Under the pieces are notes generated by a model. The model saw only the letters and a program-made list of their open reading frames with translations, searched no databases and had not been told where the DNA came from. Positions 32,324-33,363 of a stretch of DNA of 64,000 bases are shown in pieces. Origin of the DNA: Escherichia coli. GTDB taxonomy: Bacteria; Pseudomonadota; Gammaproteobacteria; Enterobacterales; Enterobacteriaceae. A program made the position numbers and the translations under genes. The stretch is taken from assembly GCF_016026235.1 (NCBI RefSeq), contig NZ_CP065613.1; one strand, written 5' to 3'. The first letter of the stretch is position 1; each line of letters opens with the position of its first letter.

Positions 32324-32869
32324 AAATCTCTTTGTTTCTCGTGTGCGATCGTGGTCGCTCGCTAAATTCCGCGCTGCATCGTCGCCGTATTTCCGCATTA
32401 ACTATGACCGTAGCCCGACGGGGAACTCCTTCTGCGCGAGTGTGCGGGAATAATCAAAAACGATGCACACCGGGTTTTTACCGCGTTTATGGTTCGCGGG
32501 TTTGTCCCTCATGCTCGCCAGTCCTGTGCGGGGGTGGAAGAAACAGGACACTTACACTGATTCTTGTGGGTACGATGCTATTCCTTTCTGGATTATCCCG
32601 ATGTCATTCATGCAGGGCGCTGTATCAGACGTTCGTCATGGCTGTCAGGCTGACGGGTCCTCCCGGTGGGGTGGCCTGCCACGGGGCGGGAGCGGCGCGG
32701 AAAAAGGCTAGTTTTTGAAATTTCATTCGTCATCACCACTACTGTAATGTATTGATATTACAGTGGTTTTATTTTTGTGCTGTCGGTTTTGATTGTTTTT
32801 TGTTCATCACTAACACCGTTTGCCTAAAGTTGTTCGCAAGATGCATGTTTAAAACATTCTGGAGCGGGT

Positions 32870-33363
32870 ATGGATCGAGAGTTAAAAAATCTGACGCTGA
32901 ATATCAGTCAACTGGCGGCACTGTCAGGTGTACATCGCCAGACTGCTGCGGCAAGGCTGCAAAATCTACCCGTTGCAGGGGGCATGAAAGCAACCTCAAG
33001 CTTTATCGGGTGGTTGATATTGTGTCGGCATTTCTGGCATTACCACCGCCGGTTGCAGAAGGCGAAATGGACGCGCATGAGCGCAAAGCCTGGTATCAGT
33101 CTGAACGTGAGCGTCTTAAGTTCGAACAGGAAACGGCACAACTCATTCCGGCCAGTGATGTCAGACGGGAGTTTGCCATCTGGGCAAAAGCGGTCGTGCA
33201 GGTGCTGGAGACATTACCGGATATTCTTGAACGTGACTGCGGTCTGCAGCCTGCCGCTGTGAGCCGTGTTCAGTCCATTATTGATGATCTGCGCGATCAG
33301 ATAGCCCTGCGGGTGACTGAAGCAGGTGCGGATGATGAGGAGGAATTACAGCAGGAGGAGTAA
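32870..33363 (+). pseudogene. Terminase small subunit (lambda Nu1 family) with an apparent frameshift in a G5 run at 32978-32982. The N-terminal HTH is in frame 2 and the remainder in frame 1.
   Basis: N-terminal part MDRELKNLTLNISQLAALSGVHRQT…PVAGG and C-terminal part …ESNLKLYRVVDIVSAF… both align with Nu1. One extra G restores a single ~165-aa ORF. The stop overlaps terL ATG (TAATG). Confidence 0.65.

Follow-up and report, generated by a model that had tools for sequence, protein, structure and literature searches.

Does the gap in front of the small terminase gene of an Escherichia coli prophage hold the site at which the phage DNA would be cut for packaging and, if so, where does this site begin and at which bases would it be opened? 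The gap, 546 bp long (32324-32869), belongs to a stretch of 64,000 nucleotides of contig NZ_CP065613.1 (hereafter the window) and lies between an open reading frame (ORF) of the DUF4406 family (32012-32323) and the ATG of the small terminase gene, terS, at 32870. The original prediction, made from the letters of the sequence, had placed a candidate cohesive-end (cos) site at 32400-32870. The host prophage is lambdoid, with head and tail genes 92-94% identical to those of mEp460 and its relatives and a Rac-like early region. From comparison of sequences, the stretch 32655-32869 is very probably the lambda-type cos site of this mEp460-like prophage, laid out in the style of lambda. Direct support for this reading comes from homology and spacing shared with lambda cos, from the breakpoints of database records, from conservation across related loci and from the protein families of the terminase.

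Alignment with the cos site of lambda

The right and left ends of the lambda genome (NC_001416) were joined and then aligned with the window. Lambda ACGGGTCCTTTCCGGTGATCCGACAGGTTACG/GGGCGGCGACCT/CGCGGGTTTTCGCTATTTATG aligns with ACGGGTCCT-CCCGGTGGGGTGGCCTGCCACG/GGGCGGGAGCGG/CGCGGAAAAAGGCTAGTTTTTG (slashes bound the overhang), and around the nicks lambda reads TTACG/GGGCGGCGACCT/CGCGG where the window reads CCACG/GGGCGGGAGCGG/CGCGG. The two sites have in common the cosQ 7-mer, the CG dinucleotides at both nick flanks and, within 1 bp, the distance from cosQ to the nick (22 bp here vs. 23 bp in lambda). By this alignment the top strand would be nicked at 32683/32684 and the bottom strand opposite 32695/32696. 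The overhang is identical to that of lambda at 7 of 12 positions, including all of bases 1-6, and differs at bases 7, 8, 9, 11, and 12, while the two-fold symmetry of the 16-bp cosN is 8/16 compared with 10/16 in lambda. Lambda-like cos sites, whose definition includes partial symmetry of cosN (PMC4669245; PMC9026076), vary in nature in the overhang's right half, which is free, and conserve cosQ and the flanking CG pairs (Feiss and colleagues, PMC4669245). The differences seen here match this natural variation, since all five fall in the half that varies. The I2 element, to which a spacer in the window corresponds in position, is required for termination in lambda (PMC4669245).

A single match to GGGTCCT-N22-GGGCGG is present in the 64 kb, and the overhang sequence of mEp460 is identical to that of the window. 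In composition, G+C reaches 80% in the 60-nt stretch 32640-32699 and is 30-37% over 32700-32849. The GC-rich core that had been likened to lambda cosN, cacggggcgggagcggcgcggaaaaaggctag at 32680-32711, is a homologue of it, the alignment extending base for base through cosQ and cosN. The fold of the cosQ-cosN region as single-stranded DNA is unremarkable (z = -1.0), and a full-text literature search for the overhang string GGGCGGGAGCG returned papers on G-quadruplexes and vectors and none on phages.

Conservation across related loci

An exact-pattern scan of IMG/VR found more than 120 loci with this cosN, of which 103 had enough flank and, together with the window, made up the 104 loci analyzed. 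The cosQ-cosN-I2 block of 58 bp is nearly invariant. Four classes of cosB stand on an identical copy of it and diverge from about base 34 (bases are counted from the predicted left virion end at 32684): class A includes the window and mEp460, class B cdtI and Tritos, class C PhiR40_1 and class D, for example, locus L117. The I2-like spacer is identical in all four despite the differing cosB downstream. A fifth group, with a related block, is formed by Stx and VT1-Sakai phages and 1720a-02.

Within class A (51 distinct loci), columns conserved in at least 98% of loci begin exactly at 32655 and continue across cosN and cosB into the beginning of terS; the mean minor-allele frequency is 0.23-0.43 upstream of cosQ vs. 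0.03 in the conserved block. Across phage classes, lambda included, similarity likewise starts at (C)GGGTCCT, with divergence directly upstream, and cosQ does not vary in any of the classes compared. Since the DNA upstream of cosQ is mosaic, the stretch from 32400 to about 32654 is best taken as flanking DNA and not as cos, so that of the range first proposed the part from 32655 onward stands and the ~330 bp upstream of it (32400 to about 32654) become mosaic flank. The ATG of terS lies at base 187 here; most loci have it within bases 185-202, and the lambda gene starts at base 191. In the window, cosQ, cosN, the I2-like spacer, the R3-like site, the IHF site and the R1-like site are all identical to the consensus. 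Of 5426 complete E. coli genomes, about 4000 contain sequence that matches this 1.1-kb region.

Among named phages, mEp460, Ayreon, mEp460_4F5, and vB_EcoS-569R4 have a cos region 95-97% identical to that of the window, with the same cosB class and TerS; unlike the window, they keep the R2-like site, terS and terL intact. The class B phages cdtI (AB285204) and Tritos (OV696610) have the same cosQ, cosN and I2-like spacer except for base 12 of the overhang (T for G), a TerS of the DUF1441 family, a large terminase of the same type and structural genes about 91% identical, but their cosB is unrelated from about base 34. The cos of mEp213, carrying GGGCGGCGCGCT, aligns with that of the window (PMC12315714). 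The cos sites of N15, phage 21, Gifsy-1, mEp213/LLS and the E. coli satellites known as phage-inducible chromosomal islands (PICI) differ in overhang sequence, R elements and TerS family.

In 1720a-02, Stx2_14040, and VT1-Sakai (loci L014, L015, and L016) the flanking CG pairs enclose GGGCGGGCGG or GGGCGGGCGGG. Barring mis-assembly of the G-runs or a shift of the nicks, the overhang predicted for these Stx-type relatives would have a length of 10 or 11 nt in place of 12.

The AT-rich segment, a probable cosB

A putative cosB of 175 bp, rich in A+T, extends to the ATG of terS. The suggestion that this stretch could hold terminase and IHF sites is supported by a perfect IHF consensus at a conserved position and by repeated candidate TerS sites (Table 1). 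Perfect IHF consensus sequences number six in the 64 kb (both strands), one of them within the 175 bp of cosB. The same consensus occurs at the same bases in cdtI and Tritos (class B) and in 1720a-02, its distance from cosN being kept in phages with an otherwise unrelated cosB, and the class A columns that vary within it, 32749-32750, are two of its four N positions.

The repeats are not those first described. The AT-rich strings quoted as repeated motifs, tgatattacagtgg at 32753-32766 and ttttgattgtttt at 32787-32799, do exist, but each is present in a single copy and they have only TTGAT(A/T)T in common. The true repeats of the gap are TCATCAC, at 32730-32736 and 32804-32810, and an 11-bp inverted repeat (32738-32748 and 32757-32767).

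The 7-mer TCRWCAY, of which TCATCAC is one form, is found at about bases 47 (+), 97 (-) and 121 (+), with the middle copy mutated in the window. Over classes A, C, D, and E and 1720a-02 its positions are 41-53 (+), 94-99 (-) and 118-123 (+), some classes lacking one or more of the three: the first is found in classes A, D, and E, the minus-strand copy in class A, class C, 1720a-02 and VT1-Sakai, and the third in classes A, C, D, and E and 1720a-02. The TerS proteins of the classes that bear the motif have in common the recognition helix HRQT..AR (HRQTAAARL in the class of the window). The cosB of class B, which contains CATGGCGGCGGCAGCATG, has no TCRWCAY, and its TerS differs at the N-terminus and has the recognition helix HRDTVKKRL. 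In the cosB of 569R4 four copies are present vs. 0.17 in shuffled sequence, a statistic that overstates significance because the motif was defined after the data had been viewed; positional conservation is the better argument.

The order of these elements (plus-strand copy, IHF site, minus-strand copy, plus-strand copy) and the position of the first copy match the R3-I1-R2-R1 arrangement of lambda, in which R3 occupies bases 50-65 (PMC9026076). As in lambda, the putative cosB is AT-rich, with candidate R sites on either side of its IHF site; the end and the start of terS are ~190 bp apart, and the large terminase belongs to the gpA family. Unlike lambda, the cosB of the window has no sequence similarity to the lambda R sites, its IHF core lies about 9 bp nearer to cosN (the lambda core being placed near base 71 from its sequence), and its TerS is of the DUF1441 family.

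The inverted repeat flanks and partly overlaps the IHF consensus. In class A most of its pairs persist but breaks are numerous, and the right arm belongs to the segments of cosB that vary most. A role of the two arms as a pair of TerS half-sites was considered and rejected, given the high variability of the right arm and the lack of the repeat in the other classes.

Table 1. Elements of the predicted cos site and the terminase genes that follow it (positions in the window; bases of the predicted virion DNA in parentheses).
Feature	Coordinates	Strand	Remarks
cosQ, GGGTCCT	32655-32661	+	Packaging-termination element; identical to the lambda 7-mer at 48473-48479
cosN, CG/GGGCGGGAGCGG/CG	32682-32697		16 bp; aligns with lambda cosN
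Predicted 5' cohesive end, GGGCGGGAGCGG	32684-32695	+	12 nt; length and polarity putative
I2-like spacer, CGCGGAAAAAGGCTAGTTTTTG	32696-32717		Position corresponds to lambda CGCGGGTTTTCGCTATTTATG
R3-like candidate TerS site, TCGTCATCAC	32727-32736 (44-53)	+	Invariant in class A; putative binding site
Inverted repeat (11 bp), then T-run	32738-32767		Flanks and partly overlaps the IHF consensus
I1-like IHF site, TATCAATACATTA	32745-32757 (62-74)	-	Perfect match to WATCAANNNNTTR; putative binding site
R2-like candidate site, CTGTCGG	32780-32786 (97-103)	-	Degenerate; relatives have GTGTCGA (TCGACAC on the minus strand)
R1-like candidate TerS site, TCATCAC	32804-32810 (121-127)	+	Within conserved block TTTTTTGTTCATCAC; putative binding site
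terS (DUF1441 small terminase)	32870-33363	+	Frameshifted, G6 to G5 at ~32977
terL (gpA-family large terminase)	33363-35443	+	Frameshifted, G5 to G4 at 33475

Phage records opened at or near the junction

Record breakpoints were collected by a sensitive search of phage collections followed by inspection of the record ends. The records of cdtI (AB285204, NC_009514) and Tritos (OV696610) have the counterpart of 32684 as their first base and that of 32683 as their last: both start with GGGCGGGAGCGTCGCGGAAAAAGGCTAG (beginning GGGCGGGAGCGT) and finish with CTGCCACG (ending CCACG). These breakpoints count as supporting evidence and not as proof. The record of mEp460_4F5 (LR595868; loci L001 and L004) has its opening displaced leftwards from the predicted nick by 4 nt. 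It also lacks 3 nt inside cosN, reading GGGCGGGAG and then, after the missing bases, CGCGG; the opening and the deletion are probably artefacts that arose when the genome was assembled, or re-opened, at the physical ends. The records of mEp460, Ayreon and ev081 open at the ATG matching 32845, 161 bp from the likely physical end. Among the matches listed, no IMG/VR contig with this cosN had it at the end of the locus, and nearly all were isolate genomes.

The terminase and the state of this copy

An intact homologue of the large terminase matches the Pfam families GpA_ATPase (8e-72) and GpA_nuclease (5e-85). Large terminases of the gpA family are associated with 5' cohesive ends, according to the reasoning of Casjens and Gilcrease as used in PMC12315714 and PMC5764929. 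The only Pfam match of TerS is DUF1441 (PF07278, 9e-41), and the protein remains below the gathering threshold of Phage_Nu1 (PF07471), a family to which lambda Nu1, run as a control, scores 2.5e-100. With E = 0.0024 and a probability of 12%, hhalign of a profile of 31 sequences places residues 9-53 of TerS on residues 2-48 of Nu1, a span that includes the helix-turn-helix and the GG..N..LY wing. In the AlphaFold model of TerS (mean predicted local distance difference test score, 77) the N-terminus forms a beta-helix-helix-wing-helix arrangement, with a strand at 9-11, helices at 12-19 and 23-30, a strand at 45-47 and a helix at 48-56. The top Foldseek match of this model in the PDB was chain B of 6hn7 (72 residues; probability 0.98, E = 0.07, template-modelling score 0.57 on the target), which we take for the fragment of lambda TerS (residues 1-98) present in the RppC complex, followed by winged-helix regulators of the MerR type. 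The name Nu1-like given to this gene in the original prediction thus seems fair for fold, position and role, but not for family membership, the family being DUF1441.

The lengths of runs of G, C or A differ from those of near-identical loci at 32977, 33475, 33987, 35392, 36591, and 37248, and these differences break terS, terL and the portal gene. Compared with a locus 99.5% identical, the window has five single-base homopolymer indels, in both directions, and 14 substitutions in 4 kb. The indels look like long-read sequencing error. The G5 allele of terS is also known elsewhere: a protein cluster of 11 member sequences (P0030) is identical to the ORF 32845-33363 of the window, and the allele occurs at locus L062.

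The start of TerS differs among annotations. An ATG at 32845, 25 nt upstream of the terS start, is out of frame in the window; in mEp460 (locus L005, 1-60) an A-run shorter by 1 nt brings the equivalent ATG in frame, and this is the annotated TerS start. Alternative N-termini in the databases accordingly include those due to the shorter A-run, that of P0018 (a different indel) and that of P0030.

A proposed model of packaging

By analogy with lambda, packaging may be pictured as follows. In the lytic cycle, the cos region would be traversed by the late transcript and by concatemers of the DNA. TerS, through its predicted N-terminal winged helix, would bind the repeated sites in cosB, the candidates being those of the TCATCAC type at about bases 47, 97, and 121, and IHF bound at its site would bend the DNA and aid TerS. 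TerS on cosB would then place the gpA-type large terminase on cosN, where it would nick the top strand at 32683/32684 and, 12 bp further right, the bottom strand, giving the 5' overhang GGGCGGGAGCGG. From 32684 packaging would move rightwards, taking in terS and terL and then the genes for head and tail, and it would terminate at the next cos, where the final cut would be directed by cosQ, cosN and the I2-like spacer. The junction formed by ligation of the two ends is predicted to read CCACGGGGCGGGAGCGGCGCGG.

Alternative explanations

Some observations weigh against the reading of 32655-32869 as a lambda-type cos site with the ends given above. The physical ends and their polarity are placed by analogy, as are the binding of TerS and IHF and the identity of the true R sites. 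The record ends of cdtI and Tritos may themselves have been set by analogy with lambda; the Tritos paper states no method for the genome ends, nor does that of mEp460_4F5. The Ayreon genome was opened at terS for want of a mapped cos, and for the mEp460-type phages the site was explicitly left unmapped (PMC5764929). The 12-nt length of the overhang is not guaranteed, since some relatives have a spacing of 10 or 11 bp between the conserved CG pairs. As for the proteins, BLASTP detected no similarity between TerS and Nu1, phmmer found no match of TerS among PDB sequences, and the fold and profile matches to Nu1 are statistically weak. The motif of the R sites was defined post hoc and its middle, R2-like copy is missing from the window. 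Moreover, terS and terL are frameshifted, and this copy of the prophage may for that reason not package itself.

The last two points lead to an explanation that we consider possible but rather unlikely, namely that the cos is genuine but a relic here, in a prophage that is incapable of self-packaging because the DNA-binding domain of TerS is lost, TerL is cut short and the R2-like site is mutated; it would be functional only with the terminase of a related helper phage in trans, or never. The change from G6 to G5 throws the winged-helix part of terS out of frame and is an allele that recurs (P0030, L062), terL has lost a G from its own run, and the only two substitutions private to the window in the 826 bp of 32655-33480, compared with 50 related loci, fall in the R2-like element, at 32780 and 32786. 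Yet the indels, being all in homopolymers and in both directions, are of the kind typical of long-read error, the other cos elements agree with the consensus, cosN is identical to that of the plaque-forming mEp460, and R2 and R1 are less important than R3 in lambda (PMC9026076). It is improbable that the hairpin 32738-32767 with its T-run acts mainly as an RNA element, an intrinsic terminator or insulator before the structural genes, in place of a TerS/IHF architecture, although the two roles are not mutually exclusive. A scan for terminator-like sequences does match it, with 13 pairs followed by TTTATTTTTG; its RNA fold of -14.6 kcal/mol (z = -3.2) is that of a weak terminator-like hairpin, and 12 of 51 relatives have C-G or T-A in place of T-G at the pair 32740/32765. 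But the same scan counts 1 such hit vs. 1.1 in shuffled sequence, the stem has three G-C pairs only, its inner pairs do not hold for the majority of relatives, breaks in several of the outer pairs affect 6-24% of loci, and the IHF consensus keeps its position in cosB classes without the hairpin. An Rfam scan of 31500-33500 at E up to 1 gave no match, and late transcription in lambdoid phages is antiterminated.

That the gap is protein-coding, with the GC-rich core as part of a gene, is very hard to credit. There are indeed an ORF of 82 aa (32463-32711), annotated as a hypothetical protein in mEp460 (mEp460_059), and one of 137 aa (32305-32718), and other records contain assorted hypothetical ORFs, but the predicted cut would split the ORF in virion DNA, the annotations differ in strand and frame from record to record, and RefSeq mostly has none. 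Because the site-spanning ORFs range from 21 to 146 aa across the 104 loci, they do not represent a conserved gene; they have no Pfam match and the DNA upstream of cosQ is mosaic. The original view of the ORFs of 82-137 aa as spurious is supported by this lack of conservation. Packaging by the headful (pac) mechanism, with the likeness to lambda cos a coincidence, has practically nothing to recommend it, in view of the gpA family of the large terminase, which is associated with 5' cohesive ends (PMC12315714; PMC5764929), and of the nearly invariant 58-bp block about 190 bp upstream of terS.

A satellite-like locus and possible packaging specificities

In one of the IMG/VR loci (IMGVR_UViG_2574179916_000005, 1-11983; L022) two cos sites are separated by 10.7 kb. 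The first belongs to class A and is followed by terS and by a terL truncated past the ATPase domain. Between the two sites, after terL, lie genes for an integrase, Bro-N, AAA_25, a single-stranded DNA-binding protein (SSB) and a ClpP-capsid fusion. The second site has an identical cosQ-cosN-I2 block, a cosB of class D and its own DUF1441 TerS. This element has the appearance of a satellite, or of an island of the PICI type, that is inserted into terL and shares the cutting module of the phage.

A wider reading, which we put forward as speculative and rather doubtful, would take these observations together. The lambdoid enterobacterial phages with a DUF1441 terminase would comprise at least four private specificities of packaging initiation, in which the cosB class is matched to the recognition helix of TerS and one common cosQ-cosN-I2 module serves all four classes, class D being carried by a small integrase-bearing, satellite-like element (L022). 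The window prophage, with an intact cutting module, a lost R2-like site and a TerS without DNA-binding domain, would be a hitch-hiker packaged in trans, and only by a co-resident phage of class A. If this were true, it would not be an autonomous phage. No published work on the packaging specificity of DUF1441 TerS was found.

Neighboring sequences

The DUF4406 ORF, similar to nucleoside 2-deoxyribosyltransferases, lies downstream of the lysis genes, between an Rz-like gene and cos; it is likely a moron, and relatives have other genes at its position. A segment of about 180 bp (32371-32549), noncoding in most annotations, is 95-97% identical to DNA located ~125 bp from the right end of the lambda-like infant-gut phages 2B8, 4A7 and Lambda_4C10. 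It was considered as a part of cos and rejected, being mosaic and not kept in all loci with this cosN.

Chi octamers (GCTGGTGG) occur eight times in the window vs. 2.4 expected, on the plus strand at 6062, 8018, 25851, 29400, 31391, 33505, and 33973 and on the minus strand at 9304. The bias of seven in eight toward the plus strand corresponds to the orientation active for RecBCD entering from a right end at 32683 and counts in favor of the predicted cos; such an orientation has been described for lambdoid phages without anti-RecBCD functions (PMC12315714).

Significance

The presence of a cos site here is unsurprising, as it follows the lambda paradigm in different letters, and the scientific value of the finding is modest. 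What the comparison adds is a predicted placement, at the level of the base, of cosQ, cosN and the overhang, together with the point at which cos begins on the left, an IHF site, candidates for the R sites and the correct family of TerS. One consequence concerns annotation, since mEp460_059, listed as a hypothetical protein, crosses the predicted cut site. For the phage itself, the natural ends of the virion genome are fixed by prediction, with the left end at 32684, the right end at 32683 and packaging directed rightwards into terS, and for the very common group of DUF1441 terminases candidate TerS and IHF sites are now available.

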